In this document: positions 3,810-55,578 of the stretch, piece by piece | Layout of the letters: each line of letters starts with the position of its first letter | Numbering within the stretch: position 1 is the stretch's first letter | DNA from: Centroscyllium fabricii | Lineage: Eukaryota | Length of the DNA: 64,000 nucleotides | Assembly (NCBI GenBank): GCA_051313645.2 | Contig: JBNRSN020000013.1 | Coordinates: 74,958,001-75,022,000 of the forward strand | Reading direction: 5' to 3' | Program-made: the position numbers and the translations under genes | The notes under the pieces: model-generated | Told to the model about the DNA's origin: nothing | Databases searched by the model: none | Seen by the model: only the letters and a program-made list of their open reading frames with translations

Positions 3810-3951
3810 CAGACAAACTATAAACCACCGAGTTTAAGTTTAAAAAGAGAGAAATAATCACCGCCCAATCACTTACCTGCTTTCTGGTGACGTCACACTT
3901 CGATTACTTTTTACTTCTCTCTCCCGCTCCAGAGATTAGTAATTAGTGTAA

Positions 3952-14051: not shown

Positions 14052-14149
14052 TTGTTCAGACTCCGAGCTGATACATATGTCTACACACTGCTGTTACTTC
14101 TAAGTAACGGTAGTGTGTAGACATATATATCAGCTAGGAGCCTGAACAA
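14052..14149. repeat. 98-bp near-perfect inverted repeat
   Basis: 48-bp arms with 5 mismatches and a 2-nt spacer. Confidence 0.9.
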
Positions 14150-23602: not shown

Positions 23603-23649
23603 AGCGCCGCTCTCCCTTTCAAATTTTTAAGCTAATAAAATTGACGTAT

Positions 23650-26600: not shown

Positions 26601-28159
26601 GACCAGCTGGCCGACCCCGACCTACTCAACGCGGCCACTAAACTTCCTGGCCTACGCTTGGCCAATGTCGCGCATGGCCCCGCTGCCACCGTCGTTTGCT
26701 GCGACGTTTCGTTATCGCAACCCAGGCCCGTCGTACCCCTCGCTTGGAGGGAACGGATCTTTACGACCCTCCATGACCTGTCCCACCCCGGCGTCCGCGC
26801 GTCCACTAAACTCATATCGGCCCGGTTTGTATGGCGCGGCCTGCGCAAAGACGTCCGCGCCTGGGCCACCTCCTGCATAGCCTGCCAGCGCTCCAAAGTG
26901 CACAAGCACATCAGGGCACCGCTGGAAAATTTTAAGGTACCGGCCAGACGCTTTGACCACGTCCATATTGACCTCGTCGGGCCACTACCAGCATCTTGCG
27001 GCCACACGCACCTACTGACCATGGTCGACCGCAACACTCGCTGGCCTGAAGCAGTTCCCCTCACTGCCACCAACACCACGGACCTGGCCAGGGCGTTCAT
27101 CGCCACATGGGTCGCCCGATTCGGCGTGCCCACAGACATCACCTCCAACAGAGGACCCCAGTTTACATCGACACTATGGGCGGCCATCGCCCGCGACCTT
27201 GGGGTGACACTACACAGGACCACCGCATACCATCCACAGGCGAACGGCCTATGCGAACGGTTCCACCGCTCAATGAAGGCATCACTTCGGGCCACGCTGA
27301 AAGACGCTTCATGGACCGACCGCCTTCCATGGGTCCTCCTCGGGCTGCGCTCGGCAGTCAAAGAGGACCTCAACGCCTCAGCAGCAGAGCTCGTCTACGG
27401 CCAGGCTTTAACGGTACCGGGCGAATTTCTGGCTGAGGCCAACGCCCCCTGGTCAGCAGACCAGTATTTAAAGGACTGGGCAAACCCGGCACGAGCTTTT
27501 CAACCACTACCAGTGGCCCGGCATGGAGAGCCGGCAGCTCGGGTGCCAGAAGACATCAAAAACGCCAAATGGGTGTTCATCCGGCGAGACGGGCACCGAG
27601 CCACTTTACAGCCACCTTACGATGGCCCATATAGAGTGCTTCGGGCGGGAGATAAGACTTTTGAATTACAAATGGGCAAAAGGACTGAAACGGTAACAAT
27701 AGACCGGCTCAAGCCGACACATGTGACAGCGGGCGAGACCACGGTCCCCGCACAACCACCGCAACGCGGTCGCCCTCCCGCACCAAAACCCGCCCACACT
27801 CCAACGCAGAACCAGAAGCAGCTAGCAACACAGTCCGGCCGCATCATCCGACCGCCCCAACGGCACACATAAACATTTTGCACTATTACTCCCGGACGGA
27901 TTCTGGGGGGAGCTGTGTGGCGGCACACCCGCTGGGATATCGAATCGGCCAACGGGGCTCCGCGGAGCACAGCCCGCTCATCCGGGTGATGCGACTACGT
28001 CACCACGTCGGCGGACGTGATGACGTCACCAACGGCGGGACGGTTTGAATATGCTTGTACTCAGTAGTTCTGCCTCTTCCTTGTTTAACTCTGTTCAGTA
28101 AAGACGTGTTTTCTCTTAGCTCTGGCTCTGTGTAGTTTCTAAAGGCCTGCGGCACAACA
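23650..28159 (+). mobile_element. CsRn1-like Gypsy element C1, inserted in the 5' LTR of G2
   Basis: 244-bp LTRs 23650-23893 and 27916-28159 (3 mismatches seen), 4-bp TSD GTAT, tRNA-Trp-like PBS TGGTGACCTCGA, PPT GGGGGGAG. Confidence 0.96.
23988..27872 (+). pseudogene. gag-pol: gag-pol of C1 with one in-frame TAA at 25950-25952
   Basis: LPEFW...PAAWF gag start, CHCC motif CYYH...C...C, LCDTGA, YLDD, HHCC/DDE integrase with GPY. The two ORFs are in the same frame. Confidence 0.93.
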
Positions 28160-31062
28160 GTATCGTCAATAATCTAATAAAACTAAAGATGAGTAGTTAC
28201 CTTAACTCAAGGCTTTTATTAGCTTACAATGGAGCTACGCTCCGATCGAACATCAGGTACAGAATGAATGGGGGCCGGTCAGTCCCCACCTATAAGGCAC
28301 TCACCTGAGGGGAGGAGTTAGAGGTGTGGCTGACCTGGCCCCACGACAGTGTCGCAACACAGGACCGTTGCATCATGCACCCGACCGCTACACATACAGA
28401 TAATATTGGATACAATATTATTGTGGTAATTACTGTATATACAACGGTTACCACACCCTTAATTGGCCTGTTAAGCCCGGGCGGGCAGGCTTAACAAGGT
28501 CATGTGGTAACCGTCTTATATCTATATTACCACTGTATCACCATGGCTAATGATGGGCTGTGCAGATGTTAGGCACAGCCCGGTTTACTGTGACACTGTT
28601 GGGAGCCAGGTCAGCCACACCCCCGACTCCTCCCCCAGGTGAGGCCCCGATATAAGTGTGGTCTGACCGAGGCTCCATCCATTCCTGTATAGTAGTTCGT
28701 AAGGAGAGTAGCTCCGTTCTTTAGTAATTAAAAGCCTTTAGTTTCGGTAACTACGCGTCGACTCTTTTAATTGAAGACCTTGACGATACGTCAATTTTAA
28801 TTACTAAACTATTTTAAAATGGATAGCTACAACGTTAAGCCGGAGAAGCTGGACATCAGCCCCCAGGACCCTGCTGCTCCCACTACCTTCGAACACTGGT
28901 TCGGCCTGCTGGAGGCCTTCATGGAAGCCGGCGAGGCTACAACAGACAGGGACATGCTACATGTCCTGCGATCTAGGATCTCCAGCAGAGTATTCACCCT
29001 CGTCAGGAACGCCACCACCTACGAAGCGACTGTAAAGATTTTAAAGAAATGCTACGTGCGCCCGGTCCATTCGGTCTACGCCCGACATGTGCTGGCGACT
29101 AGACCTCAACTACCGGGTGAGTCGAATGAAGAGTTTGAGCAAGCGCTCCTAGCCCTGGTACGGGCCTGTGGCTGCAAAGGCACAACTATTGCAGAGGAGG
29201 AAGAACTCCTCGTTCGGGACGCTTATGTCACAGGACTAAGGTGTGTGGAAGCCCGCCAGCGGCTACTAGAGAGAGACAATCTAACCCTCGAGGAGGCAAC
29301 CACGTTAGCCAAATCGGTTGAGGGGGCCCGCAGAAAGTTACAGGTGTACAGCGGCACTAACCCGCAAGCCTACAACATATGGGCCGTGCCGCAACAGGCC
29401 CAGGCCTGGGTGCCACGGGCCGAGACCCCCACGATGGCCGCGACGGCCACTGAAGATGTTAAAAGAAAGCGCTGTTACTTCTGCGGCCAGGGACTGCATC
29501 CTCGAGCGAAATGCCCAGCCAGGACAGCGACCTGCGAGAAATGCGCAAAGAAGGGACACTACGCTAAGGTCTGCAAATCGGCTCCAGCAGCATCTCCAGC
29601 AGCGTCTCCAGCAGCGTTTAACAAAAGGTACAACAGTGCAGCCTGTGAGAGCACCGACAGAGACCAGGTAAGCTGCATTAGCAGCGCGATCCAGCGACGG
29701 TACGGGGGTAAACGACAAGCGCCCCCATCCCCCACCCCGATGCAGCAAAGACCGGCCAAGCGCGACCCCCCAACGCGGCCGGCTGCGTGCGAATCACGGG
29801 CACCGCCAACCCGACCACCGCGGTTCGCTGCGTGCGAATCACGGGCACCGCCAACCCGACCACCGCGGTTCGCTGCGTGCGAATCACGGGTGCCGCCAGC
29901 GCGTTCACAGGGCCCCCCAGAAACGCCATTTCGCAACCAAGGCCCCTCCATGTGCGAGCCAGGGACGGCGCCATCTTGTATATGGGGCCCCACCAGCTGC
30001 GGGCCAGGGGCGACGCCATCTTGTATCCAGGGCCCCTCCATGTGCGAGCCAGGGGCGGCGCCATCTTGTATACGGGGCCCCACCAGCTGCGGGCCAGGGG
30101 CGACGCCATCTTGTATCCAGGGCCCCTCCATGTGCGAGCCAGGGGCGACGCCATCTTGTGCACAGTCCCGATCAGCAGGGGCTGCTGCAGCCAGAACCAG
30201 AGTTAGTCAAGGCAGGCCCCATAACCTGTCTAACTCAATAATACCGATTGGCGTTTTATTCACCCCGATACAGTGCGGCGCTGTGGACTGCAGGTCCTAC
30301 CCACCAACTACCAAGTCTCACTAGCTTCGCAGTCCCACACCGCGGACATCACCGGCTACTGCTCCGTCATGCTCACCGTCCAGGGGCGCGTGTACCGTAA
30401 TTTTAAATTGTATACCCTCCAACAGTTGTGTGCCCCAGCCTTACTAGGTTTGGATTTCCAGTGCCACTTCAGGAGTGTGACAATGGAGTTCGGCGGGACC
30501 TTACCCCCCCTCACCCTCAGTAGCCGGGACAATCTCCCCCCAAAGCGGACCCCGGCCTGCGGCCTCTCCACTCTGAAAATCGCCCCCCCCTCGCTGTTCG
30601 CCAACCTCGATCCAAAGTGCAAACCCATTGCTACTAAGAGTCGGCGGTACAGTGAGGGGGATCGCACGTTTATCAGGTCGGGCGGATGCTGAAGGAGGGG
30701 ATAATTGAAGCCAGCACCAGCCCCTGGTGCGCCCAAGTTGTAGTGGTGAAGTCTGGCGAGAAACAGCGGCTGGTTATCGATTACAGCCAGACTATCAACC
30801 GCTACACCGGGCTCGACGCCTACCCCCTTCCCCGCATCTCAGAAATGGTCAACCAGATCGCCCAGTACAAGGTGTTCTCTACGATCGACCTTAAATCGGC
30901 GTATCACCAGCTCCCGATTCGGAAAGCCGACTGCCCCTACACCGCCTTCGAGGCGAACGGTCGGCTCTACCACTTCCTCCGGGTCCCCTTTGGCGTGACC
31001 AACGGAGTGTCAGTGTTCCAACGGGAGATGGACCGTATGGTCGACCAAAATGACTTGCAGGC

Positions 31063-34000
31063 TGTGATAATACAGAACAGCTTCTATCTGCTTACATCAC
31101 TTCCGGGGACCTATAAACTTTTGTATGATGTCACTTCCTGTAACTAGCCCAGTATAAATACTGGGCTACTCACTATGATTTAGTAAGAGGCATAGTGAAG
31201 ACCTCTTTTGTATGTAGCACCTTTATAAGTTGATTAAAGCTTACCTTAAGTTCCTATCGTGTAAGTTTCATTCTTACAACAATTTAATCAACTTTGCAAA
31301 ACCTCTCACTCAACTCGAACTTTTGGACAAAACTTGGAGCTGAGGATCCAGGGAAGCCACCAGCATGGAGAACCTCCTTAGACCGACTTGTCTCGATTTG
31401 GACCCAAACACCCCAGCAGCGGATAAAGTCTGGAAACACTGGTATCACGCTTTTGAAAATTTTCTTGTATATTGTGAAGCTGATGATGACATGAAGCTCA
31501 AGTTACTAATCAACTATGTCACCCCAAGGGTATATGAATGTGTGGATCATTGGACTAATTTTGATGAGGCAATTCGGACACTTCAGAGACTATATACTAA
31601 GACACCTAATGAGGTCTATGCTAGACATCTACTAGCTACAGCCCGACAAGGGCCAGAGGTATCAATTGATAAATTCCTTCATGAGCTTCACAGGCTTAGC
31701 ATGAATTGTAACTTTCAGGCGGCTTCAGCTGAGCTGTACCGTGAAGAAATGATTCGTGATGCCTTCATCTGCGGGCTTGCCTCCCCATTTATTCGCCAGC
31801 GTCTACTCGAAAGTAAGACACTGGAACTACAAAAAGCTTATGACTTGGCTTGTTCTCTGGATTTGGCAAAAAGAAATGCAGACCTTTATGAAGTACCTAG
31901 ACCTCGAACTGCTGCTTTAACCACAACCAGACAATTTAAGCGGCCACAGGTGAACTCTATTAGGGAGGACTGTTATCCTGATGATCAATCTAAGGACTTC
32001 ACTGATGAAGAAGATAATGACCCCACTCTGGCAGCCTCTTGGTGATCTAAGAAATGCTTCTTTTGTGGTGATGAGTTTCATCCTAGGAAATTCTGCCCTG
32101 CTCGCAATGCGATTTGCAGTCATTGTGACAAAAAGGGTCATTTTGCAAAGGTTTGCTTATCACGAGCCTCTATGAGGGCTTATCAAGCTCAGTCCTATCG
32201 AACTGCCCCAATTAGGGCCTATCAAGATATTCCGGCTAAATCTTATCATGCTTCCTCTCGGGGTTTTTCCCGAAGAAGCACACCTAGAGTTTCTGCCACT
32301 CTTTGTGCAACAACATCAATTACAGCTGCTTGTCCTCCAAATCTATTCTATGCTGCTGTGAAGGCATCAATTGCTGGACATACTTTAGATGCCTTAATTG
32401 ACTCTGGCAGCTCTGATAGTTTTATTAGGGAACAGGTTGTTACAAAGTTAAAGCTACATGTTTTCCCATCCAACCAGGCAATTGCGATGGCTCAGTCGTC
32501 GCTCAACACCAGAACCTCCGGCTTTTGTATTGTTGAAATATCACTTAATGGCCACAGGTATCCCTCTACCCGGCTTTCGGTGCTCAAGGACCTGTGTAGT
32601 GACCTTCTCTTAGGGCTGGACTTCCAAAAGCAGCATAAGACGCTCACTATTGAGTTCGGCGGATCCAAACCCGGACTCACTGTTTCTAATATCCTGCCTC
32701 AATTACCGTTCTGTGCATTGTCAGCGGCTTCGCTGGATGAACCCTCACTATTTACCAGTATTCCTCCTCGATGCAAGCCAATTATAACAAAATCACGACG
32801 TTTCACTCAGGAAGACCAGTCCTTTATTGCGACTGAAATTTCTCGGCTTTTGGCAGAGGATATCATCGAGCCTTGTTCATCGTCATGGCGGGCCCAAGTT
32901 GTTATTGTTAAAAATCCTCTGCAGCCTCACAAGAAACGGCTGTGCATTGACTATTCACAGACCATCAATCAATATACGGACTTGGACGCCTACCCATTGC
33001 CGCGCATAGATGATATGGTTAATAAATTGGCTGAGTACACGGTGTTCTCAACGTATGATCTGAAAAGCGCCTATCATCAAGTACCTTTGAAAGTCTCAGA
33101 CAAGCAGTATACGGCCTTTGAGGCCAATGGACGGCTGTACCAGTTCCGTCGCCTCCCGTTTGGGGTCACTAATGGAGTGGCTGTCTTCCAGCGGGCAATG
33201 GATGACTTCGTCAAGCAGGAAAACTTAAAGGATACTTTTCCTTATCTAGATAATATTACTGTTGCAGGTCGTGATCAACAGGAACACGACGCCAATCTCC
33301 AACGATTTCAGGATGCACTCCAGCACCGTAATTTAACATTGAATGCGTCTAAATCTATTGAGTCACAACCAACCATCAACATCCTTGGCTATTGTGTGGG
33401 CAATGGCATAATTAAACCGGACCCTGAAAGGCTTCGTCCGCTCCAAGAGCTCCCGCCACCTAAGAATCCAGCCTCCTTGCGTCGGGCCCTCGGCCTCTTT
33501 GCATATTATGCTAAATGGATTCCTAACTTCTCGGACAGAATCCAACCCCTACTGAAGGCCAGAACATTTCCATTAGACACAGCGGCTGTTACAGCCTTTA
33601 ATCTTCTAAAACAACTGTTGGAGAAAGCGGCCCTTCACTCTATTGATGAGAATCTGCCCTTCGTCGTTGAATGTGATGCCTCAGAAGTGGCGATCTCGGC
33701 TACTCTGAATCAGGAAGGTCGTCCGGTGGCATTTTTATCCAGGACCTTTCAAGGTGCCGAAATACATTATCCTCCAGTGGAGAAAGAAGCTACAGCCATT
33801 ATCGAGGCAGTACGGAAATGGAACCATTTTCTAGCTCGGCAACACTTTACGTTAATAACAGACCAGCGATCGGTCGCTTTTATGCTTGATAATCGGAAAC
33901 GAACCAAAATTAAAAATAATAAGATCCAGCTTTGGCGGATGGAGTTGGCCTCTTTCGGTTACACCATCCACTACCGACCTGGCAAGGACAGTGTGGCCCC

Positions 34001-35585
34001 GGATACCCTCACACGAGCATTCTGCTCCGCCGTGTCACCCTCTACTCTCGTGGACGTCCATGATGGATTGTGTCATCCTGGCGTTACCCGCATGTTACAC
34101 TTCGTGCGATCACGGAATCTCCCTTTTTCTACCGGGGATGTCAAGAAGATGTGCTCGGACTGCAGAGTCTGTGCAGAATTAAAGCCTCAGTTTTTCCGCC
34201 CCTCGGGTGGTACGCTCATACATGCGACCCAGCCGATGCAATGGCTTAGCATTGATTTTAAGGGCCCGTTGCCTTCTTCAACTCGAAACACTTATTTACT
34301 GACCATGGTCGACGAATATTCCCGTTTTCCGTTTGCCTTTCCCTGCCCCAATATGCTGTCATCCACCGTTATCAGCTGCCTTGAACAGGTATTTTCTTTC
34401 TGTGGCATGCCGTCTTACGTTCACTCGGATCGGGGTCCTTCCTTCATGTCAGGAGAACTCAAGGCTTATCTCTCGGATCGGGGCGTTGCTACCAGTAAAA
34501 CGACGCCTTATCATCCTGTCGGGAATGGGCAAATCGAACGGTATAATGGCATCCTTTGGAATTCTGTACGTCTAGCTTTGAAATCTCGGGGCTTGCCCAT
34601 CCAGCAATGGGAAGCAGTACTCCCAGACGCATTGCATTCTACACGGTCCCTTCTTTCGACCGCCACGAATATGACTCCCCATGAACGATTCTTTCAATTC
34701 CAGCGTCGCTCATCCTCCGGGATCTCTCTTCCATCGTGGCTGACTACACCAGGACCGGTGTTACTCCGGAGACATGGCCGGGCATCCAAGAATGACCCCC
34801 TTGTAGATGAGGTGGAACTGACTGATATCAACCCGACCTATGCATATATCCGATATCCTGACGGTCGGGAATCCACTGTGTCGTTACAGGATCTGGCTCC
34901 CTGCCCGCCGAAACTTACTGGGACACCTGGGGATGGTGATTTGCCAGGCGCATCTCTGTGCTCGCCAGGTACCCCTCACCAGGATCTGGATCTGACGCTG
35001 GCTGGCACTTCACTCCAGGATACAAACCGGAGGCAGACCGACTATGAGCCCGTTGGGGCTCGCACACGCAGCCACGATCCACCACGTTCTACACGCCCAG
35101 AAACGAATCTACCACAGACCTACTCAACACCCGTTCGGGCTCAAACGCAAAGCCATGCTCTCCCAGACCCTTCACAGGGCGGGCCAGACCACACGGATTC
35201 TGATCAATGGCCCACGGCACGTAAACGGGCTAGAGACCCTCTATCACCATGTGAACCCAAACGGGTGCGACTCTCCCTCATTCGACGGATACGTAATGAA
35301 GGGAGGATTCCGGCCTCCTACTCTTTTGGGAGGGAGGCGGCCTCCTAATCTTTTGGGAGGGAAGAATGTGATAATACAGAACAGCTTCTATCTGCTTACA
35401 TCACTTCCGGGGTCCTATGAACTTTTGTATGATGTCACTTCCTGTAACTAGCCCAGTATAAATACTGGGCTACTCACTATGATTTAGTAAGAGGCATAGT
35501 GAAGACCTCTTTTGTATGTAGCACCTTTATAAGTTGATTAAAGCTTACCTTAAGTTCCTATCGTGTAAGTTTCATTCTTACAACA
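31063..35585 (+). mobile_element. Gypsy LTR retrotransposon G4 (divergent member of the tRNA-PBS-less clade), nested in G3
   Basis: 219-bp LTRs 31063-31281 and 35367-35585 (2 mismatches seen) and TSD CAGGC. Confidence 0.96.
31365..35348 (+). pseudogene. gag-pol: gag-pol of G4 with one in-frame TGA at 32043-32045
   Basis: ORFs 31365-32045 and 32172-35348 are in frame; zinc knuckles lie just after the stop; LIDSGS, YLDN, ECDAS and integrase motifs follow. Confidence 0.93.
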
Positions 35586-38507
35586 CAGGCCACCTTCCCT
35601 TACCTGGACAATGTGACCATCTGCGGCCACGACCAGCAGGACCACGATGCCAATCTGGCCAAATTTCTCGCCACGGCGGCTAAGCTACACCTCACGTATA
35701 ACAAAGACAAATGTGTCTTTAATACAGCCCGGCTCGCCATCCTCGGATACGTGGTGGAGAACGGGGTCCTCGGCCCCGACCCACAGCGTATGCGACCCTT
35801 GCAAGAACTGCCCCTACCTCACAACCCCAAAGCCTTGAGGAGATGTCTAGGATTTTTTCCTATTATGCACAATGGGTCCCACAGTTCGCAGATAAGGCTA
35901 GACCACTCCTCAAGGCTGCCATCTTCCCCCTTTCTGTGGAAGCCCAAACGGCATTCGCAAGGATAAAGGAAGATATTATCAAGGCGACCATGCTTGCTGT
36001 TGATGAATCCATCCCTTTCCAGGTGGAGAGTGACGCTTCGGACTTTGCCCTTGCTGCCACCCTGAATCAGGCAGGCAGGCCCGTAGCGTTTTTCTCCCGC
36101 ACCTTACAGGGACCCGAAACTCGCCACTCAGCAGTGGAAAAGGAGGCCCAGGCCATCGTGGAGGCCGTGCGCTACTGGCATCATTACCTGGCCGGTAAGC
36201 GTTTTACCCTGCTCACCGACCAACGGTCGGTGGCGTTTATGTTTAACAATAAACTACGGGGTAAAATCAAGAATGATAAGATCCTGCGGTGGCGGATCGA
36301 ACTCTCGACTTACGAGTACGACATTCTTTACCGACCAGGCAAACTCAACGAACCCCCGGACGCACTATCCAGGGGAACGTGCGCCAGTGCCCAGCTAGAC
36401 CGGCTGAAGGACCTCCACGACCGCCTTTGCCACCCGGGTGTCACCAGACTCGCCCATTTCGTCAAATCCCGTAGCCTCCCCTACTCCATCACGGAGATCA
36501 AGGCTATAACCCGAGAGTGCCCTGTCTGCGCCGAGTGCAAACCCCACTTTTTCCGGCCAGACACGACGCACCTCATCAAGGCCACCCGCCCCTTTGAACG
36601 TTTCAGCGTGGACTTCAAAGGCCCCCTCCCTTCCACCGACCGCAACTCATACTTCCTCACGGTAGTGGATGAGTTCTCCCGCTTCCCCTTCGCCTTCCCA
36701 TGCCCAGACATGATGAGCGCAACGGTGATCAAACACTTCACCACGCTGTTCGCCATTTTCGGTCTCCCCAGCTACATCCATAGCGACCGGGGGTCATCGT
36801 TCATGAGCGATGAACTGCGCCAGTTTCTGCTCCAGAGAGGGGTTGCCACGAGCAGAACGACCAGTTATAACCCCCGGGGGAATGGCCAGGTAGAAAGGGA
36901 GAATTGGATTATCTGGAAGGCGGTCACCCTGGCTCTGAAGTCCAGAGGCCTTCCAGTGTCCCATTGGCAGGCAGTCCTCCCAGATGCGCTGCACTCTATC
37001 AGATCACTGTTATGTACTGCTACTAACGCCACCCCGCACGATCTTATTTTTTCGTTTAACAGGAGGTCGACTTCGGGGACAGCACTCCCTCCATGGCTGA
37101 CGACTCCGGGGACGGTTTTGCTTAAAAGGCACGTCCGGAACCACAAGATGGACCCGCTGGTGGACAAAGTACAGCTCCTACACGCGAACCCGCACTACGC
37201 CTTCGTGCAGTTCCCAGACGGGCGTGAGGACACCCTGTCCATCAGGGACCTGGCCCCTGCCGGAAACACCACCACAGCGCCCCCTGTGGGCCAGCAGGTC
37301 GTTCAACCACCAGACACAAGATGGCCCCCGAGTTTCCCCGACTGCGACCCGGACGGCGGGGACCAGCCGAGCCCACCGCCACCCGAAGTCACAGCGCCGG
37401 CAGATGCGGGCTATTCGACCCAGGAGGCATCACCACCAACACCGGAGCTTCGGCGGTCCTCCAGGCAGGCACGACCGCCGGACAGATTAATTATGAACTG
37501 TTCGATCCATTCACCCCCCCCCCCCCCGGACTCAAAGTTTTTAAGAAGGGGTGAATGTGGTAACCGTCTTATATCTATATTACCACTGTATCACCATGGC
37601 TAATGATGGGCTGTGCAGATGTTAGGCACAGCCCGGTTTACTGTGACACTGTTGGGAGCCAGGTCAGCCACACCCCCGACTCCTCCCCCAGGTGAGGCCC
37701 CGATATAGGTGTGGTCTGACCGAGGCTCCATCCATTCCTGTATAGTAGTTCGTAAGGAGAGTAGCTCTGTTCTTTAGTAATTAAAAGCCTTTAGTTTCGG
37801 TAACTACGCGTCGACTCTTTTAATTGAAGACCTTGACGATACGTCAGGTCAATCAAGGGAAAATAGCATGGGTTGGCCAGAGGTTGATGGAGGCGGGACT
37901 GAAACCCGACAAGTGGGAGTCCCGCATCCAAAAGCTTCCCATTGAGAAAATTACCCCCTCTGTGTCTGAAGAATTGTGGGCTCATGTCCTTCTGTCAGCA
38001 CTTACCTGAGGCCTTCATTACGATCCTCCAGCGCATGGTGTGGAACCATGATCAAGTCTTGATAAATTACAAAGGAATCCTTTGGTAAAAATTCACTGCA
38101 GTTCAACATTCTTGTCAAAAGCAGGAGGAGGAAACACACCACTTACTTGCTGTACCTCCAGGAAGCTGCTGTCACCTTAAGTTCCTGTAGGTTTTTAAAT
38201 CTTGCAGAAACAAGTTTCCTTTCCTTCCAGTGATTTACTCCTGTGTTACACCGGAGTTACTCTCCTAGCCTGCTAATCAAATGCTAATGAGTGGATCCCC
38301 CAATTTCTAGCATTGCTGCAGCTTAAACAGTCCTGTGGATTTTTGAGCCATTGTTTTTAATCTTACAGACTGACTGCCATGCCTAATTGAGACTGAAAGA
38401 CAGACATAAAGTAGGTTAGAGAGAGAGTGAAGGGGAAAGAGATGTGTCAGTGCACTTAAGAGAAAAGTAATGAAAGAAGTGCAAAAACACACCATCAAGG
38501 GGGTAAA

Positions 38508-41378: not shown

Positions 41379-44300
41379 TGTGGCAGGTCCACATCCCACT
41401 GTGTATAGCTGTACATAACCTCCATGTATATAATTCTCTGTAACTGTATATGTAACTTACTTATGTACGAGGCATGGCCCCTTTAAGAGCGCAGGAAATG
41501 CGGACCCATGTGATGACACGCGGTGACATCATCACGCTGGGCTCGGGCTTGTTCAGACAGTGTGATCAGCGACTTGATAGAGTAAAGACCTGTTTTGTTA
41601 CTGTTCCTTCATGTGGACTACGTTTCTTCAGCTTAGACTGCTACATTGGTGACCCCGAGTTGATGAACGTATTCACCAGCTTTCACAACATTATGGCATC
41701 AAACGCTGTGGCCCTGAAGCTGCCTTCATTCTGGGAACAACAGGCGCCCGCGTGGTTCGTACACGTCGAGGCCCAATTCACCCTGCGGGACATCATGGAG
41801 GACAACACCAAGTTTCTGCACGTTGTCTCCAGCCTCGACAGTTCTACAGCCTCCCAGGTCCTCGGCCTCCTCGAAAGTCCACCGGGTAACGGCAAGTATG
41901 ACACTTTAAAACATAGAAACATAGAAACATAGAAGATAGGAGCAGGAGTAGGCCATTCGGCCCTTCGAGCCTGCTCCGCCATTCAATGAGATCATGGCTG
42001 ATGATCCAAACCCAGCACCCCGCCCCTGCCCTCTCCCCATATCCCTCGATCCCTATACCGACACATATCCCACCCTATCCCCGTAACCCGACATATTCAA
42101 TCCCCCTAACACTAAGGGTCAATTTATCATGGCCAATCAACCAAACCCGCACAAAAGCTAGACGACTGCAGGTCTTCAGCCTCTCCAAGGATGAGCGAGC
42201 CCTTTGACTGCTCACGTTGCCTGGCCTTGGGGACTCAACACCCTCCCAATTGATGAGCCAAATGCTCACGCTGCTCAGATCAGAACCTGAATGCTTTCTC
42301 TTCAGGGCGTTGTTCCTAAGCCAGTTATCCGAGCAGGTTCAGGTTGCCCTCGCGGGTTCATTGATCACCGACTACGCCGAACTCGTGGCCGAAGCTGATA
42401 AAATTTTCGCCGTCACCAGACACAGTTGCGCCGCCACGAGGTACCCCGCCCCCGCGAACAACGCCCCGGCTCGCTAGGCTGCAGGCCTCTGTTTATATCA
42501 TGTAAGGTGCGGCGCGAAAGCACAATGCTGCCGCCCCCCACACGTTCTCCTCAAAAAAAAACCTGAACAACTGAGCCCGCAGCCACGGCGGACCACTTCT
42601 AGCCGTTCTCCCGCAGCAATACTGGCAGTCGGTTTGGCAGGGAAACTCCTGTTTATAACGAACTCCCTTTCGGGTCGGCGGTTCCTCTGCGACACCAGCG
42701 CGCAGTGCAGCATTCTGCCTGCGTCTACCCTCGACACCCAGGCTGGACAGCGCGGAGCTCCCCTCGAAGCAGCAAATGGCGCCACGATCCAAACCTTTGG
42801 CAAGCAGCGGGTGGAAGTTTGTTTTGAGGGGTAACACTTCCACTGGGATTTCGTCATGGCTACGATTTCCCAGCCTCTTCTCGGTGTCGATTTTCTATAC
42901 GCCCATGGCCTCCTTGTAGACTTTGGCGGCTCATTAATGCGGCCACCTTCCAGTCGCTGCTGTGTCAGCGCAGCAACACGACGGCACGCACTGTCTCATG
43001 TGCCTCCCCTGCGCCCGATGAATATTCTCACCTACTGGGCGAATTCCCCTGCCTCACACAACCCACCTTCTCATGTGCATCAGCCAAGCATGGCGTGGAG
43101 CACCACATCTCCACCAACGGCCCCCCGGTCTACGCGCGGGCTCGGTGTCTGGAACCTGGCAAAGTGGTGGTGGCGAAGGTGGAGTTTGCCACGATGGAGC
43201 GGCTGGAGATTATTCGCAGGTCCAGTAGTCCCTGGTCCTCACCTCTACACATCGTCCCAAAACCTGGCGGCGGATGGCGGCCCTGCGGTGACTACCGTCG
43301 ACTGAATGATGCCACCACACCGGATCATTACCCAATCCCACATATACTGGATTTCTCCGGGCACTTGGCGGGCAATACCATATTTTCAAAGGTAGACCTA
43401 GTCCGAGGCTACCACCAAGTTCCCGTGCACCCGAAGGATGTTCAGAAGACCACAGTTATCACTCCGTTCGGCCTCTTTGAATTTCTTAGGATGCCCTTCA
43501 GTCTGAAGAACACCGCCCAAACTTTCCGGCGCTTGATGAACCCCGTGCTTCGGGATCTTAAATTCAGCTTTGTCTATCTCGACGACATCTTGGTGGCCAG
43601 CCCAAACAAATTGGAGCATCTTACGCACCTGCGTGCCCTGTTTCAGCACTTGAGCCAGCACGGGCTCATAGTCAACCTGGCCAAATGCCAGTTTGGCTTG
43701 AGCCAGATTGACTTCCTCGGCCATTGAATCTCGGCTGAAGGAGCAGTCCCCCTACTGGCTAAGGCGCAAGCGGTGTCAGCCTTCACACGCCCCCAGACGG
43801 TCAAATCCATACCAGAATTTCTCGGCATGGTGAACTTCTACCACAGGTTTGTGCCGAAAGCAGCACTCCTCATGCGGCCCCTGTATGGAGCTATCAAAGG
43901 CAAGTCCGGCAAAAACCCAGTCCAATGGACAGCTGAAATGTCTCTGGCTTTCGACAACGTGAAGCTCGCATTGGCCAATGACACCATGCTAGCGCACCCT
44001 CTGCCTGGTGCCACCATAGCCCTCACGACCGACACGTCCGACTATGCCATCGGGACCTTCCAGCAACAATGGGTCGACGGCGCATGGCAACCCCTGGTGT
44101 TCTTCAGCTGGCAGCTCCGGCAAATGAGAGGGCTTACAGCACCTTTGACCGTGAGTTGCTCACCCTGTTCTTAGTGATCAGGTACTTTCGCTTCCTCCTG
44201 GAAGGTTATCCCTTTACGGATTTTGTAGACCACAAGCCACTGACGTTCGCGATGTCCAAGACCACCGAACCGTGGTCCACGCGGCAGCAGCGTCAACTCC

Positions 44301-46030
44301 CATTCATCTCGGAGTTCACTACCGATATTTGACACGTGGCTGGCAAAGAGAACATGGTAGCGGATTGCCCCTCCCGCCCAGCCCTACATGCCGTCCAATT
44401 AGGCATTGATTATGCTCGCATGGCGGCGGACCAGCTCACCGACGCGGATGTACAGTCCTGTAGGACAGCAGCCACGGGACTCTAGCTGGCCGACGTCCAT
44501 TTTCATGCAGCAGGTACCACCTTGCCCTGTGACGTCTCCATCAAAGACCCTCAGCCCATCGTTCCAGCCACTTGGCGGCACCAGGTTTTTGACGCAGTTC
44601 ACGGGCTTTCACACCCGGGCATAAAAGCCTCCCAAAATCTGATGGCGGTGAAGTTTGTTTGGCACAGTCTCCACAAAGATGTCCGGGACTAGGCGAACAC
44701 CTGTCTGGTCTGCCAAAAATCCAAGACACACCGACACGTCAAGGCGCCTCTCACACCTTTCACAGTACCAGAACGCAGATTCGACCACATCCACATGGAC
44801 TTAGTAGGCCCCCTTCCACCGTCTCATGGCTACTCTCATATTTTGACGATGGTGGACCGCACTACAAGATGGCCAGGGAAAATTTCACTTGCCTCCACCA
44901 CCGCAGCGGATGTGGCCAGAGCATTCCTCGCAACATGGGTTACCAGGTTCGGCGTCCCTGCCGATACCTCATCGGACAGAGGCCCGCAATTTACCTCACA
45001 GCTCTGGAACGCGGTCGCCCAGGGACTCGGCACCAAGCTTCACCGGACCACCGCTTATCACCCGCACGCAAATGGTCTCTGCGAAAGATTTCACCGTTCG
45101 ATGAAGGCCGCACTGAGGGCCAGTCTCCAAGGTGCCGGCTGGGTAGATAAGCTGCCGTGGGTCCTGCTGGGACTCCGCACTGCTCCTAATGAGGATTTGC
45201 ATTCCTCCCCCACAGAATTAGTCTATGGTCAACCTCTCAAGGTTCCAGGTGACTTTATTCCTATGGCCACCGAGTCCAGGTCTGCATCCGCACAACTGGC
45301 ATACCATCAGGAAGCTGCCAGATGTTTCCGCCCGGTCCCCACTTCGCAACATATCTTTCAACGTTCTCACGCGTCCAAGGAGCTTCACGACGCCGAGTAT
45401 GTTTTCATTCGGCAAGATGCCCACAGAGCTCCCCTCCAGGCCCTGTATACTGGGCCTTTCCATGTGTTAGAAGTGGGTGTGAAATCTTTCACCCTCGACA
45501 TGGGAGGCAAAGCCGATCATGTCTCTGTGGATCACCTCAAACCGGCGCATCTAGATCATGATTCCCCGGTGCAGCCGGCGCAGCCACCGAAATGTGGAAG
45601 GCCTCCTGCCGGCATCCTCCCTGAAACACCGCAGCCGCCCGCGAGTCCGCCCTCCTGCCAACCCACCAGTCTGCCAGTCCTCCAGCCCGCCAGTCCGCCA
45701 GCCACACCGCAGCTTCCGTCGTCTGGATACTGCAGCCGCCTCTGCGTTTGACTATGTGGCAGGTCCATATCCCATTGTGTATAGCTATACATAACTTCCA
45801 TGTACATAATTCTCTGTAACTGTATATGTAACTTACTTATGTATGGGGTGTGGCCCATTTAAAAGCGCGGGAAACACGGACCCACGTGATGACATGCGGT
45901 GACGTCATCACGTTGGGCGCGGGTTTGTTCAGCCAGTGTGATCAATGACTTGATAGAGTAAAGACCTGTTTTGTTACTGTTCCTTCGTGTGGACTCCGTT
46001 TCTTCAGCTCGGAATACTTAGATTCCTATA
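41379..46030 (+). mobile_element. Older CsRn1-like Gypsy element C2 with decayed gag-pol (about 41693-45751)
   Basis: Diverged LTRs 41379-41645 and 45755-46030, TSD CCAT, tRNA-Trp PBS TGGTGACCCCGA, LKLPSFW gag start, YLDD, many stops. Confidence 0.93.
41912..42150 (-). mobile_element. 5'-truncated HE1-type SINE in the gag of C2
   Basis: Homologous to 38508-38740 with a (GTTTCTAT)n tail. Confidence 0.85.
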
Positions 46031-49004: not shown

Positions 49005-52000
49005 TGTGGTGAACCATTTAGTGTAGTTCACACTGTGTTATTATTGTATATAGTTTGTGCTAATAAAGGTGTTCCTTTCTGTAAGGACCTGGACCAGCTG
49101 ACCCCGCCTCCGGGTATGAGTATAAAGGAGGATGCTCCACCCACCTGACTCTCATTCCGGGCGGGACTCATCGCGGACCAGGTCTTGTTCTTAGCGAATA
49201 AAAGCCTTTGATTACGATTCACCAAAGACTGGCGTAATTGATTAGCGCATCAATTTTATTCGCTAAGATTTACAATGGGTGATGAGCCAGGACAGAGCCA
49301 ACAGCCAGCTGCACCAGACACCTGGAGATCGATCCTCAAGCCAAAGACTCTCGACCTCAACCCCCAGGCACCGAACGCTTCGAACGATTGAGCACTGGCT
49401 GAGCTGCTTCGAGTCATTTCTGGTGGTGGCCGGAGTCAGCGATACGCACAGGAGACGGGTCCTAGTCTCCTGCGTCAGTGGCAGGGTCTATGCAATCATC
49501 AAGAATGCCACTGACTATGATGCAGCGTTGGAGCTGCTGAGGGCTCGGTACCTCCAGCCTGTCAACGCCGTCTACGCTCGCCATCTACTCGCCACGCGGA
49601 GGCAACAACCTGGTGAGTCGAACGAGGAGTACCTGGAGGCTCTTCAGGCTCTCGCTCTGCGCTGCGAATGTGCACCCATTAACGCCCAGGAGCACATGGA
49701 CCTCCTCGTCCGCGATGCCTACGTGGCAGGAATCTGATCGGCCCCAGCCCGCCTGCTCGAGCAGGATGATTTGTCCCTGAACCAGGCGGAGAAGCTCTCC
49801 AATGCGGTGGATGGGGCCCTCCGCAGCCTGGATTCGTACACGGGGCACGGCTCCCACGCAGTTTCCCCAGGGCCTTGGGACTCGCGTTTAACGCCCTCGA
49901 CGGCAACCGTGGTGGCCACGGCGCCATCCGGACAGCCAGCGCCCCTGAAATGCCATTTTTGTGGCCAAAAACGCCACCCACGAAGCTCCTGCCCAGCGAA
50001 GTCGGCATCCTGCTCCAGGTGTGGCAAGAAGGGCCACTTTGCGAAGGTCTGCCGATCGGCCCCGGAATCTACTAAGAAAACGGCAGCAGCCTGCGATCTC
50101 TATGCCACAGAGTGGCCTCAGGTACCTAGCGCCCCCCAACAGCGTTTTTCTAAGAAACTATTACCTAACTTGCCTCAGGTGCGGCCTGCCAGCGCCATTT
50201 CCCGCATTCTGCCGTCTTCCTCTTCAGTCGAAACGTGGGCGCCGTCGCCATCTTTGGGGGGCGCGGCCTTCTTTATGCCTGGAACGGCGCGAACGGGTTG
50301 CAGAGGCCCCGCCCCATCACGTGACGCCACCGTCTCCCCACGTCACGTCAGCAGCGGTCCCCCCCCATCACGTGACAAAGACCGAACGGGCGGCAGAGGC
50401 CCCGCCCCATCATGTGACGCCGCCGTCTCACCACATCACGGCAGCAGCGGTTCCCACCCATCACGTGACGCCACCATCTGAACGCGTCACGGCATCAGCG
50501 GTCCCGCCCCATCACGTGACAACGCCATCTTGGTGCAGGACGGCCTGCATACCTACAGCGGAGGGCCCGACACCATCTTTGTATAGGAAGATTTTTAAAG
50601 CACAGGCTGCTGCACCAACTAGCAACTTTAAATTAACCTCAGTGGTCCTAGCAGCTGCAACAGACTACTCCAGACCACTTCAGCATCCGGGCACTGCTGC
50701 TGCGCCGCGAGCCCTTCGGTCTTCCCGACGGCATTCTCGGAGACTCACCCACCGGTCCGAAACACCACCGCGGCCCGCCGCGTGCGAATCACGGGCGCCG
50801 CCAGCAACCGCGGACCCTGCATCGCACAAGGGCCCCAGCGCGCACACCACACTTGCCTCTACGGCCCCGAACCCGTCTCTTACTTTATCAACGATGACCA
50901 CCCGGGTGGAGGGGCACCTCACCCGCTGTCTGTTCGACACTGGGAGTACGGAGAGCTTTATACGCCCTGATACAGTGCGCCGTTATTCCCTCAGGGTTAG
51001 GCCCACGCATCGTAAAATCTCTCTCGCCTCCGAGTCCCAGACTGTGGACGTCATCGGCTGCTGTACAGTCACCATTACCGTGAAGGGGGCGACATACCGC
51101 AACTTACCACTGTACGTCCTCCCACAGCTCTGTGCCCGTGTTGCTTGGCCTGGATTTCCAGTGCCATTTGCAGAGCTTAACGATGGCGTACGGTGGTCCC
51201 CTGCCTCCTCTCACGGTCAGCAGCCGTGACTGCCCTGCCTCACAACCACACTCCTCTTGCGATCTGTCTACCTTGAAGATAGACCCCCCCTTGCTGTTCG
51301 CCAACCTTGACCCTGACTGCAAGCCCATTGCAACCAAGAGTCGGCGATACAGCGCGGGGGACCGCACCTTTATTAAGGCAGAGGTTGCCCGGTTGTTGCG
51401 GGAGGGCATCATCGAGGCCAGTAACAGCCCGTGGCGGGCCCAGGTGGTAGTGGTTAAGTCGGGCAACAAACAGCGCCTGGTCATTGACTATAGTCAGACC
51501 ATTAACCGCTACACTGGGCTCGACGCTTATCCGCTTCCTAGGATAAATGATATGGTCAACCAGATTGCCCAGTATAAGGTCTTCTCCACCATCGACCTTA
51601 AGTCGGCCTATCACCAGCTCCCCATCAGAGCTGAGGACCGTAAATACACTGCCTTTGAGGCAAATGGGCGCCTTTTCACTTCCTCCGGGTCCCCTTTGGG
51701 GTTACCAATGGAGTTTCGGTCTTCCAATGGGAGATGGACCGAATGGTTGACCAGTACCATTTGCAGGCCACATTCCCGTATTTGGACAATGTCACGATCT
51801 GCGGCCATGATCAGCAAGATTACGATGCCAATTTGGACAGGTTTCTCCGTACGGCCCAGCGTCTGAACCTCACTTACAATGAGAATAAGTGTGTTTTCAA
51901 CACTAACCGGTTGGCTATCCTCGGCTACATAATTGAGAACGGGGTCTTCGGTCCTGATCCCGAATGTATGTGCCCCCTTCAGGAGCTGCCTCTGCCGCAC

Positions 52001-55000
52001 TCCCCCAAATCTTTGGTGAGATGCCTGGGGTTTTTCTCGTATTATGCACAATGGGTTCCCCATTATGCTGATAAGGCCCGGCCTCTCCTCAGAGCTACCT
52101 CCTTTCTGCTCCCATTAGAGGCCCAAATTGCATTTTCACATATTAAGCAGGACATCATCAAGGCAACCATGCACGCTATTGATGAGTCTCTCCCCTTCCA
52201 GGTCGAAAGCGACACCTCAGACTTCGCCCTGGCCGCCACCCTCAACCAGGCAGGCAGGCCCATTGCTTTCTTCTCCCATACCCTACAGGGCCCTGAAGTC
52301 CGCCACTCTTCAGTGGAAAAGGAGGCCCAAGCAATCGTGGAAGCAGTGCGCCACTGGCGTCACTATTTGGCCGGTAAGCGTTTTACCCTTCTTACGGAAG
52401 GCCGCAGGTCCTGATGGCATCCCCGGCCGGGCACTCAAAGAATGTGCCGACCAACTGGCTGAAGTCTTCACTGTCATCTTCAACCTGTCACTGGCGAAGG
52501 CAGCTGTCCCTACCTGCTTCAAAACCGCCACCATCATCCCTGTGCCCAAGAAAACGGCCGTGACGTGCCTGAACGACTACCGCCCTGTTGCACTTACACC
52601 CATTATCATGAAGTGTTTCGAGCGGCTGGTCCTGGCCCACATCAAAGCCAGCATCCCCGCCGCCCTGGACCAATACCAGTTCGCCTACCGTGGGAACAGA
52701 TCTACAGAGGATGCTATCACTACGGCTCTTCACTCTGCACTAAACCACCTGGATAGCAAAGATACATATATCAGAATGCTGTTTATTGACTACAGCTCAG
52801 CATTCAACACCATCGTCCCCAGTAAATTGTCTACCAAACTCCTCACCCTCGGCCTGAACACCTCCCTCTGCAACTGGACCCTGGACTTCCTAACCAACAG
52901 ACCACAGTCTGTGAAGTTAGGCAACCTCACCTCCCTCCCCCTTACCCTGAACACGGGGGCCCCACAAGGTTGTGTGCTCAGCCCCCTCCTCTACTCCCTC
53001 TTCACTCACGACTGTGCGGCTGTCCATGGCTCCAACACGATCATCAAGTTCGCGGATGACACCACGGTGGTTGGCCAGATCACCAACAACGACGAGTCAG
53101 CCTACAGGGATGAGATCCAGCGCCTTGTGGGTTGGTGTGCCGACAACAACCTGGCACTGAACACCAAGAAAACCAAGGAGATCATAGTGGACTTCCGGAG
53201 GACTGGAAGCAGAAGACACCCCCCCATCTTCATCCAAGGGGCTGAGGTGGAAAGGGTGTCCAGCTTCAAGTTCCTCGGGGTCCACATCTCGGAAGATCTC
53301 TCCTGGTCACTAAACACCTCCTCTCTGGTTAAGAAGGCCCAACAGCGCCTGTACTTCCTAAGGAAGCTGAAGAAAGCCAGGCTGTCATCCGGCATCCTCT
53401 CCAACTTCTACCGCTGCACAATAGAAAGCATACTGACAAGCTGCATCACTGTCTGGTATGGTAATTGCACTATCTCGGACCGGAAAACCCTGCAGCGGGT
53501 AGTCAAAACTGCCCAACGAATTACCGGTACACAGCTACCGTCAATGGAAAGCATCTACCTCAAATGCTGCTTACGGAGGTCTATGAACATTATTAAAGAC
53601 CCCACACACCCCAGCCACAGTCTGTTCGCCCCCCTGCCCTCCAGGAGACGCTACAGAGCAATTTGCACCCGCACGACTAGATTTCAGAACAGCTTCTTCC
53701 CCAGGGCTGTCAGCCTCCTGAACTCTAAAAATAAACTCCGGTACCTGCACGCCTGATAATGTACTCTACTGTATGCATTTTGCATGTAATTTATTTATTT
53801 TATTTGCACTACTCTCGGGAGAGTCGAGTCTTCGTCTCGTTGTATTGTACTAGTACTCTGCAATGACAATAAAACTTGAATTGAATTGAATTGAATTGAA
53901 TTGAATTGAATTGAATTGAATGTTCCACCATAAACAGAAGGGTAAGATCAAGAATGACAAGATCCTCAGGTGGCGGATCGAACTCTCCGCCTTTGAGTAC
54001 GACATTCTGTACTGGCCAGGGAAGCTTAATGATCCCCCGGACGCCCTGTCCCGAGGATCGTGTGCCAGTGCCCAGTCGGGTAGTCTGAAGACCCTCCACG
54101 CTAATCTCTGCCACCCGGGGGTCACGAGGCTCGCTCACTTCGTCAAATCACGCAATCTCCCTTATTCCATTGCGGAGATCAAGGCGATGACGCAGGAGTG
54201 CCCTGTCTGTGCTGAGTGCAAGCCCCAGTTTTACAGGCCTGACAGGGCGCACCTCATCAAGGCCACCCGCCCATTCGAGCGCCTGAGTGTGGACTTCAAA
54301 GGTCCCCTCCCCTCTACCAATCGTAACTCGTACATCCTCACTGTGGTCGACGAGTTCTCCTGTTTCCCTTTTGCATTCCCATGCACAGATATGACGAGTG
54401 CAACAGTGATAAAGCATTTTATCACGCTATTCGCCATTTTCGGCCTCCCCGGCTTCGTACACAGCGACCGGGGGTCCTCTTTTTGAGCGACGAACTGCGT
54501 CACTTTCTGCTCGCGAGGGGGGTTGCCTCGAGCAGAACGACCAGTTACAACCCCCGGGGGAATGGCCAGGTAGAGCGGTTTAATGGGACCATCTGGAAGG
54601 CCATTTCTCTGGCCCTTCGATCCAAAGGCCTTCCAACCACCCACTGGCAGGAGGTCCTCCAGGATGCGCTCCACGCTACTCATTCCCTTTTGTGTACAGC
54701 TACCGGTTGCACTCCTCACGAGAGACTCTTCTCTTTCCACAGGAAATTGACTTCGGGGACGTCGCTGCCGACGTGGCTTACCAACCTGGGGCCGGTCATG
54801 CTTCGTAGACATGTCCGGGGGCACAAGACGGACCCTCTTGTTGAACGTGTGCGCCTGCTGCATGCCAACCCTCAGTACGCTTACGTGGAGTACCCAGACG
54901 GGCGTGAGGATACCGTCTCAATTAGAGACCTCGCGCCCGCTGGAGACGTTCACGGGGAGTTGTTGGCGGAGCCCTTGCCCTCCCAGGTCGCACTTCCACA

Positions 55001-55578
55001 ACAGGGGCCTACTTTTCATTCACCGCCGCACATTACATCGGGGCCCTTGCCACCTACAATGCACGACAGAGTTCATCACGTTGCTCAACCTCCGGCGGCT
55101 GCTACACCTCCACCAGATCTTCCTGCGTATGAACCTCCTCTTCCACCGGTGGAGTCCCTGTTCACTTGGGGAGCTCCGTCAGCATCTTTTCCGATTGCGA
55201 CTACTCCCGCTTTTTTATGTGAATCGCCATTGCTTCGCAGGTCTTCTCGGACTGTTCGACCTCCTCAAAGACTGATAATGCAGTGCTGATGTTCGCCCCG
55301 CGGGTCTTGTTTTTTTAAGGAAGGGGTGAATGTGGTGAACCATTTAGTGTAGTTCACACTGTGTTATTATTGTATATAGTTTGTGCTAATAAAGTTGTTC
55401 CTTTCTGTAAGGACCTGGACCAGCTGACCCCGCCTCCGGGTATGAGTATAAAGGAGGATGCTCCACCCACCTGACTCTCATTCCGGGCGGGACTCATTGC
55501 AGACCAGGTCTTGTTCTTAGCGAATAAAAGCCTTTGATTACGATTCACCAAAGACTGGCGTAATTGATTAGCGCATCA
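49005..55578 (+). mobile_element. Gypsy LTR retrotransposon G5 (tRNA-PBS-less clade) with frameshifted gag-pol (about 49275-55289)
   Basis: 248-bp LTRs 49005-49252 and 55331-55578 (3 mismatches seen), TSD CCCAA / CCCAT, PPT TTTTTTAAGGAAGGGGTGAA, LFDTGS, YLDN, integrase. Confidence 0.95.
52395..53920 (+). mobile_element. Rex1/Babar LINE, 5'-truncated, inserted in the RNase H of G5; RT frame open to 53756
   Basis: [45 protein letters not shown], and a (TTGAA)9 tail at 53876-53920. Confidence 0.95.

Follow-up and report, generated by a model that had tools for sequence, protein, structure and literature searches.

A Ty3/Gypsy clade with a primer-binding site complementary to its own LTR poly(A) signal: a candidate for internal self-priming

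In a clade of Ty3/Gypsy retrotransposons recognized in the genome of Centroscyllium fabricii, the 5′ LTR ends in CA and is followed by one spacer base and then by 13 nt complementary to a segment of the same LTR that ends in the poly(A) hexamer. Self-priming of reverse transcription in some form is very probable for these elements and, judging from sequence, it is reasonably likely that minus-strand synthesis starts without a tRNA, from an internal piece of the 5′ copy of the element's own RNA cut just after AAUAAA. The arrangement was encountered in a 64,000-nt stretch of DNA, here called the window (assembly GCA_051313645.2, contig JBNRSN020000013.1, positions 74,958,001–75,022,000, forward strand), which contains five related and partly nested Gypsy elements, G1–G5, as well as two unrelated ones. 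A preliminary description of the window had reported five perfectly reverse-complementary segment pairs, each beginning one A past the CA of a 5′ LTR, and the absence of a TGG-type primer-binding site (PBS) from all five elements. Each of these observations stands: the pairs are exact at their coordinates in 5/5 elements, CA, one A and the duplex follow one another in all five, and TGG-type sites number 0/5.

The layout is most completely displayed by G5 (forward strand). Its 5′ LTR, TG...CA, occupies 49005–49252 (248 nt, three differences from its own 3′ LTR) and carries, by sequence reading, a TATA box at 49121 and an Inr-like TCATTC with its A at 49154, which together mark the predicted transcription start (49121–49157). 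The partner segment and candidate self-primer lies at 49189–49203, pairs exactly, and includes a conserved 13-nt core (49191–49203) and AATAAA (49197–49202). Next comes a loop that runs from the candidate cut site to the LTR end (49204–49252); its first bases, GCC, are those that in most relatives start a short helix adjoining the duplex, and G5 is the single exception to the two usual positions of that helix. The spacer base (49253) and the PBS follow (49253–49268 together), with a 13-nt core at 49254–49266 and pairing out to 49268. The gag ATG is at 49275, and the polypurine tract and 3′ LTR (55331–55578) close the element at 55317–55578.

G3 (forward) spans 28503–28808 at its 5′ end, comprising the LTR (28503–28793), the partner (28720–28733) and the PBS (28795–28808), and has its 3′ LTR at 37556–37846. 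Nested inside it is G4 (forward), with the 5′ LTR at 31063–31281, the partner at 31227–31238 and the PBS at 31283–31294 (31063–31294 overall), followed at 31344–35585 by gag-PR-RT-RNase H-IN frames, here split by a stop, and the 3′ LTR (35367–35585). On the reverse strand, an element nested at about 23650–28160 interrupts the 5′ LTR of G2, so that the pairing of G2 is visible only across the insertion: the main piece with the partner (28214–28226) lies at 28160–28455, and the last 8 nt of the LTR, the spacer (23641) and the PBS (23640–23628) lie at 23628–23649, with the 3′ LTR at 19092–19391. G1, also on the reverse strand, extends past the left edge of the window; its 5′ LTR (end at 3549, start approximate), partner (3602–3614) and PBS (3547–3535) fall within 3535–3810. 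LTRs differ at 2–3 sites within elements; of the 5-bp target duplications, those of G2, G3 and G4 are intact and that of G5 carries one mismatch.

Allowing at most one mismatch, the best helix between the PBS and the element's own LTR measures 12–15 in the five window elements, against means of 5.8–6.5 and maxima of 8–10 for shuffled LTRs (30 shuffles per element); the 3′ flank yields 5–8 in the four elements whose 3′ LTR lies inside the window. The two unrelated elements, the one nested in the G2 LTR (23650–28160, forward) and a second at 41379–46018 (forward), are CsRN1-like with TGG-type tRNA PBSs; the same helix test gives 9 and 5 for them, and neither has self-pairing at the PBS register. 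An Rfam search matched nothing within the window.

Generality was assessed in a scored table of 59 elements, 40 from this genome and 19 from metagenome contigs. In this genome, the first 60 matches of the clade's RT motif on one contig were taken, 43 of which have a repeat pair and 35 CA-defined LTR ends; pairing extends over 12 nt or more, with no more than one mismatch, in 34 of these 35, and over 11/13 in the remaining one. The other 25 matches comprise 10 with the same junction form and 15 without a scoreable junction, and because a loose scan (at least 11/13 after any CA) matches 32/60 control stretches by chance, those 10 were accepted on position and form. The metagenome sample came from the best 80 of 550 loci, most of which have no 5′ end; 11 of the 19 elements were obtained via LTR pairs and 8 via a duplex scan, the latter thus being selected for having the duplex. 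Among 18 further metagenome loci examined, 7 pair 12/13. Four loci (L064, L086, L089 and L090) have upstream sequence and no clear duplex. LTR pairs are mostly 95–100% identical. A TGG PBS occurs in 0/59 scored elements, and none is present in any clade member whose LTR end is defined.

Across the 59 elements the duplex has sharply defined limits. It begins one base past CA in 59/59, a register identical to that of the tRNA-type and sushi-like PBSs of the same genome, and the spacer, an A in 58/59, forms a Watson-Crick pair in 0/59. Positions 1–13 are Watson-Crick in 752 of 767 cells, with 2 G.U pairs and 13 mismatches, and pairing at position 14 (28/59) is near chance. Own-element pairing exceeds cross-family pairing at positions 5–11 (0.97 vs 0.63) and 12–13 (0.95 vs 0.52) among 39 distinct variants, levels that 0 of 5000 permutations reach; positions 14–16 are marginal (0.43 vs 0.35, 179/5000) and positions 17–20 at chance. 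Related copies are non-independent, and these permutation figures are accordingly not strict probabilities. The compensatory covariation proposed from five elements is thus real and clade-wide, as the 59 elements and the genome-wide counts given below attest. The originally described duplex of 12–15 bp was correct in its exact pairing, but the conserved unit is 13 bp and longer runs are mostly chance extension.

That the complementarity merely reflects chance A/T matching or an assembly artefact is scarcely credible. An A/T-rich hexamer does make up half of the duplex, and the loose scan described above readily finds matches in control sequence; against this stand the fixed register, covariation at G/C pairs, the permutation and shuffle controls, and the recurrence of the duplex on independent metagenome contigs. 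Two genome-wide junction patterns, moreover, gave 38,473 matches together and 0 with reversed controls.

The same genome-wide patterns bear on what the duplex does. A primer that is copied should show G.U no more often than C.A, whereas a plain RNA helix would tolerate G.U better. At position 8, 18,559 junctions carry either Watson-Crick form (roughly 4 in 10 of the first 100 matches listed, counted by eye, being the T form), alongside 52 U.G and 62 C.A; at position 9 there are 19,914 Watson-Crick junctions, 131 G.U and 130 C.A. Other predicted helices of the same leader contain 12% G.U (56/452). The mismatches were checked in the first 20 of each class, and the 3′ LTR region could be located for 24 of the 40: in 10 the 5′ partner is unlike its own 3′ copy, indicating a change after insertion, and in the other 14 the two LTRs match each other but not the PBS, a pattern that fits either one later change or a mismatch carried through one cycle. 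The scarcity of G.U, together with the fixed register and the sharp length, favours priming; strict selection for Watson-Crick geometry could yield the same G.U and C.A counts. Templating of the PBS by the primer is also not universal, since neither Ty1 nor Ty3 inherits its PBS from the primer (PMC5371799).

The partner always contains a hexamer, AATAAA in 31 of the 59 elements, ATTAAA in 21, GTTAAA in 6 and TTTAAA in 1, the last two classes (7/59) being weak or non-canonical signals; a second canonical hexamer is present in only 1 of 52 LTRs. The partner lies 30–67 nt from the LTR end and PBS. In 22 representatives the predicted probability of the local duplex averages 0.90, and the hexamer is predicted to be paired with a probability of 0.96 in the 5′ context vs 0.43 in the 3′ context. 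The duplex is followed by GCC or ACC in 52/59, and a 3-bp RCC/GGY helix adjoins it, closing locally or just before the LTR end; such a helix is present in 42 of the 43 distinct loops, against a null mean of 13 and a maximum of 21. A helix 3′ of the PBS, equivalent to a second duplex of the Tf1-like 'pretzel', scored 5.88 vs 5.62 for shuffled sequence, in a test that is weak on sushi controls too. Masking of the 5′ poly(A) signal would follow from the geometry of the duplex, and may be either a by-product or a second role. A hexamer as near to the cap as 45 nt may in any case work poorly as a poly(A) signal, and masking may then be incidental.

These data invite the alternative that the duplex regulates polyadenylation, or translation, and nothing else, with priming at this site, or close to it, by another RNA (a tRNA half or a small RNA, for example). 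The invariable presence of the hexamer within the partner and its predicted concealment at the 5′ end only would suit such a role, and the comparison with tRNAs covered just Lys and Cys genes (9 sequences; longest PBS match 7 nt), too narrow a set to count. Regulation, however, supplies no reason for a duplex that starts one base past CA, stops at 13 bp and rejects G.U; the 39 distinct 13-mers each fit their own LTR and no common RNA, and there is no TGG site for a mature tRNA. We therefore regard this alternative as very unlikely.

In this genome a TATA box is present in 39/40 elements, and among these 39 an Inr-like A lies at TATA+27 to +33 in 37 and the duplex starts at TATA+66 to +73 in 38, in agreement with the earlier estimate of about 70 nt past the TATA box. 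Four barely alignable LTR types share the TATA and Inr, 37–44 nt upstream of the partner. With promoter elements upstream and the duplex at +66 to +73, the primer is predicted to be internal. The base at the 5′ end of the duplex is a pyrimidine in at least 50/59 elements, and a pyrimidine is a poor Pol II start. The 18 metagenome elements inspected for promoters present a different picture: a TATA-like word occurs in 2 and there is no consistent upstream Inr. The proposal that the partner is not the transcript 5′ end is accordingly supported for members from this genome, where it is predicted to lie about 37–44 nt inside the RNA, but in TATA-less metagenome members priming of the Tf1 type is possible. 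Four sequencing runs compared with the elements consisted of contigs spanning U3 and the empty-site junction; the rows examined contained no starts, ends or tails, a result without bearing on expression.

Tf1-type self-priming, newly adopted by this clade, would place the start at or just inside the partner and make the first 11–13 nt of the RNA the primer; R would then be only about 30 nt long, and the 5′ hexamer would be silent because it would be adjacent to the cap and part of the primer. Such a scheme requires no novel chemistry, and several observations are in line with it: a conserved A(G) lies exactly 11 nt from the duplex end in 56/59 elements, in register with the duplex and not with the hexamer, often in an Inr-like TTAGT or TCAGT context; 4 of the 18 metagenome elements match an Inr-like pattern at that A; TATA-less relatives have, by eye, a U/GU-rich stretch upstream that is a possible 3′-only poly(A) enhancer; and one element, L095, pairs over only 11 nt, which is the length of the Tf1 primer (PMC7175516). 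Yet covariation, involving all four pair types, extends to positions 12 and 13 (58/59 and 56/59 elements), so that bases upstream of the conserved A belong to the pairing RNA, and the TATA and Inr common to the four LTR types lie well upstream of any such start. The sushi-like elements of this genome also behave differently. Among 20 loci, 15 with a repeat pair, nine were usable, the remainder of the 15 having mis-called or unusable ends; seven of the nine have one spacer base and exactly 11 complementary nt and two more have the same register with one mismatch. Their primers start with G after TT, at TATA+29 in 8/9, and the partner is far from the hexamer, some 340–440 nt from the LTR end. 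On this evidence a Tf1-type start is an unlikely, if serious, alternative for the clade as a whole.

The conserved A at 11 nt is left unexplained by the internal-primer model. By eye, the conserved AG stands in a polypyrimidine-YAG in some families and in AAG in others; ideas of the AG as a splice acceptor, of a DPE downstream of the partner and of a B-box in the leader, likewise formed by eye, found no support.

The internal-primer model can be set out as a series of steps. Transcription would start at the Inr-like site about 30 nt past the TATA box, placing the partner at roughly nt +38 to +52, and the duplex would fold locally on the nascent RNA and conceal the 5′ AAUAAA; the 3′ copy, with no PBS after it, would keep a usable hexamer. 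In the particle, RT/RNase H would cleave where the duplex meets the RCC helix, immediately 3′ of AAUAAA(A). The preliminary description had argued that the polarity of the partner gives a 3′-OH facing the LTR end, and polarity and register do fit a primer ending at this point. The resulting 3′-OH, one base from the LTR end, would copy the spacer, U5 and a short remnant of R. During plus-strand synthesis RT would copy into the RNA primer and remove it after about 13 nt. An internal primer needs a limit to this copying back, and by analogy a spacing like that of Ty3 RT, whose polymerase active site and RNase H active site are about 13 bp apart (PMC5371799), would supply one that matches the duplex length. 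Re-templating of the PBS from the partner in each cycle is proposed to account for both the sharp 13-nt length and the lack of G.U. In Tf1, a PBS copied into DNA is retained at the 3′ end of about half of the cDNA (PMC11042837).

A primer could instead be drawn from the 3′ copy of R, if the RNA circularized, the 3′ AAUAAA segment paired with the PBS, and a cut dropped the tail and let the 3′ end of the genome prime. The partner is identical in both LTRs, this route would leave the whole R for strand transfer and would work with any start site, and Ty3 priming uses 5′-3′ contacts and a bipartite PBS (PMC5371799). The 5′ copy, however, is only 30–67 nt from the PBS, is made first, and is predicted to pair locally with the mean probability given above, and the loop length and abutting helix are conserved, all of which makes use of the 3′ copy improbable. 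Genomic copies cannot separate the two sources of primer.

Taken at its fullest, the internal-primer model would describe an independent invention of tRNA-free priming in which the internal primer is the poly(A) signal itself, and one 13-bp duplex, sized by the RT ruler, both shuts the 5′ poly(A) site and starts reverse transcription throughout the clade; this complete picture is put forward tentatively, as somewhat less likely than not.

The clade is, on its domains and tree position, a non-chromovirus Ty3/Gypsy lineage apart from the Tf1/sushi group. Its elements have the hallmarks of Ty3/Gypsy (TG...CA LTRs, a polypurine tract and a 5-bp target duplication), and the 1100-aa long frame of G4 has the Gypsy domain order, PR-RT-RNase H-IN (Pfam, 8 hits), with Ty3 Gag-Pol as the best PDB match (E 6.5e-59). 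None of the eight Pfam hits of this frame, the one that was scanned, is a chromodomain after integrase, and among the accessions precomputed for 120 homologues none is the number that we take to be that of the chromodomain family. An unrooted RT tree of 36 rows separates the 24 clade rows from all others by a branch with 100/100 support and groups the sushi-like rows with tRNA-primed CsRN1-like rows (98/95); the labels sushi-, Mag- and CsRN1-like are our own assignments, made from motifs. G3 and G5 are in neither of the trees built because their RT is interrupted, and their membership follows from the motif and from 70–87% DNA identity to G1/G2. Two Mag-labelled loci (L171 and L174), in which other nested elements were caught, were excluded from the 36-row tree.

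Assignment to the Mag lineage was rejected, as same-genome Mag-like copies show TGGC.ACGA and occupy a separate RT branch; of 20 such loci, 6 have a repeat pair and 3 a TGG-type site, and self-pairing is at most 5 nt in all. Saci2/lennie was ruled out as a name for the clade by PBS type and target-duplication length. PMC6238403, on Cigr-1 and MolGy1-16, does not mention the PBS, and the clade RT motif is absent from the five of its supplementary files that were searched.

Homologues with 55–75% identity over RT-RNase H number 1,197, and the named hosts in the best 120 of these are a soft coral, sea anemones, shrimps, a copepod, a whipworm and a catshark. In the 7.2-Gb assembly the clade RT motif, searched as a DNA pattern, has 203,356 matches, against 0 with the reversed control; haplotype duplication in the assembly would inflate the former count. 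The viral contigs searched contained no clade relative, the prokaryote genomes searched gave one stray contig without a 5′ end, and ESM Atlas matches were to generic RT/RNase H clusters only.

These results add a widespread animal Gypsy clade, with homologues recorded from cnidarians, crustaceans, a nematode and a catshark, outside the Tf1/sushi self-primers. Should the primer be internal, self-priming can do without a cap-proximal 5′ end, and a further answer is gained to the question of how identical LTRs escape 5′ polyadenylation. The clade would presumably also escape silencing by tRNA fragments directed at the PBS, and its elements would be missed or mislabelled by annotation tools that identify a PBS through its tRNA match. 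Because the model predicts the start, the cut and the strong-stop ends to within a base or two, it can be tested directly.

Among known systems, self-priming is, by published accounts, demonstrated only for fission-yeast elements of the Tf1 type; predictions of it exist for a small number of groups in plants, fungi and vertebrates. Searches of published full text, which took in few subscription journals and did not include Repbase, returned self-priming only for Tf1/sushi/Tcn1 and plant TAR Copia elements, and nothing on pairing of a PBS with a poly(A) signal. Tf1, Tf2 and Tj1 and the Tf1/sushi chromoviruses, including Tcn1, share with the present clade the lack of a tRNA PBS and a PBS complementary to the element's own 5′ LTR in the same polarity. 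In Tf1 the primer, made by an RNase H cut between nt 11 and 12 (PMC7175516), lies in a three-duplex 'pretzel' (bioRxiv 10.1101/2022.12.06.519325). The Tf1/sushi primer is thus the first 11 nt of the RNA, whereas the segment described here is 13 nt long, lies at TATA+66–73 and includes the hexamer; the partner is 30–67 nt from the LTR end as against about 340–440 nt in sushi-like elements; and Tf1/sushi elements are chromoviruses, whereas this clade forms a separate RT branch with no chromodomain match in G4. For the TAR lineage of plant Ty1/copia (Houba, Osr-1), the prediction of self-priming is based on 10 nt or more of complementarity between PBS and LTR (PMC6317226), so that independent origins outside the Tf1/sushi group are, on that account, already on record; TAR belongs to another superfamily and kingdom, and a link to the poly(A) signal is absent from the account in PMC6317226.

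Other comparisons concern only part of the arrangement. Retroviruses (RSV/MMTV/HTLV-1, HIV-1, MoMLV and foamy virus) face the same problem, in that their LTRs are identical and yet the 5′ one has to be transcribed through and the 3′ one cleaved. Three routes are described, namely a signal in U3, a downstream splice donor with U1, and weak sites (PMC3694450), and in HIV-1 a hairpin contains AAUAAA (PMC2645353); pairing of the hexamer with the PBS is none of the three routes and is 5′-specific by construction. Saci2/lennie of flatworms are likewise described as short invertebrate Gypsy elements that have a single ORF and whose LTR and PBS vary (PMC12471100); compared by description only, they have a tRNA PBS (Leu in lennie) and mostly a 4-bp target duplication, as opposed to no tRNA site and 5 bp here. 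The 'conserved hairpin site' of fungal GalEa Copia elements also replaces a PBS by a conserved structure at the same position, but that hairpin is entirely downstream of the LTR, and its authors report finding no LTR complement (PMC5445492). Self-priming as a mechanism is thus already known; what would be new here, as read from the genomic copies, is its layout in a non-chromovirus Gypsy clade, which is itself defined by the duplex between PBS and poly(A) signal.

The reverse transcriptase (RT) of G4, the Gypsy-clade element nested in G3 (window 31063-35585), groups in the tree with elements from metagenome contigs (support 98/88), and the other clade members of its own genome fall outside this group. 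Because the G4 RT stretch is 99-100% identical across the best-scoring 150 genomic matches, G4 is best read, from sequence, as a very recent burst of copies, possibly preceded by horizontal transfer.

G2 and G3, each of which carries one nested element, lie back to back, 47 bp apart (28455-28503), with divergent promoters. GC-rich tandem repeats of 45-93 nt are located between the gag zinc knuckle and the protease in G2 (22400-22664), G3 (29923-30159) and G5 (50290-50530); they differ from family to family and are absent from G4. The RT of G5 is interrupted by a non-LTR retrotransposon (52399-53921; RVT_1 and ALKBH8_N hit, TTGAA-repeat tail), to which a fragment at 9039-9766 is 95% identical. 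The window also holds a near-perfect palindrome of 98 nt (88%; 14052-14149).

In the 59 scored clade members, the LTR segment that pairs with the PBS has a conserved AG at position -11/-10; its distance from the end of the duplex is exactly 11 nt, independent of the register of the poly(A) hexamer. A start site, an RT contact and a second cut are candidate roles for this dinucleotide. Clade members at loci L064 (1-119), L086 and L089/L090 have upstream sequence in which no clear duplex was found, and may be decayed, rearranged or true exceptions. Judged by eye among the matches listed, one subfamily with a G3-like U5 seems to make up more of both position-9 mismatch classes (G.U and C.A) than it does of the perfect copies; possible explanations are age or duplex editing.

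Sushi-like elements, with 16,429 motif matches in the genome, display the Tf1 geometry (G000 C1, loci L146-L161); one genome therefore holds two self-pairing designs.
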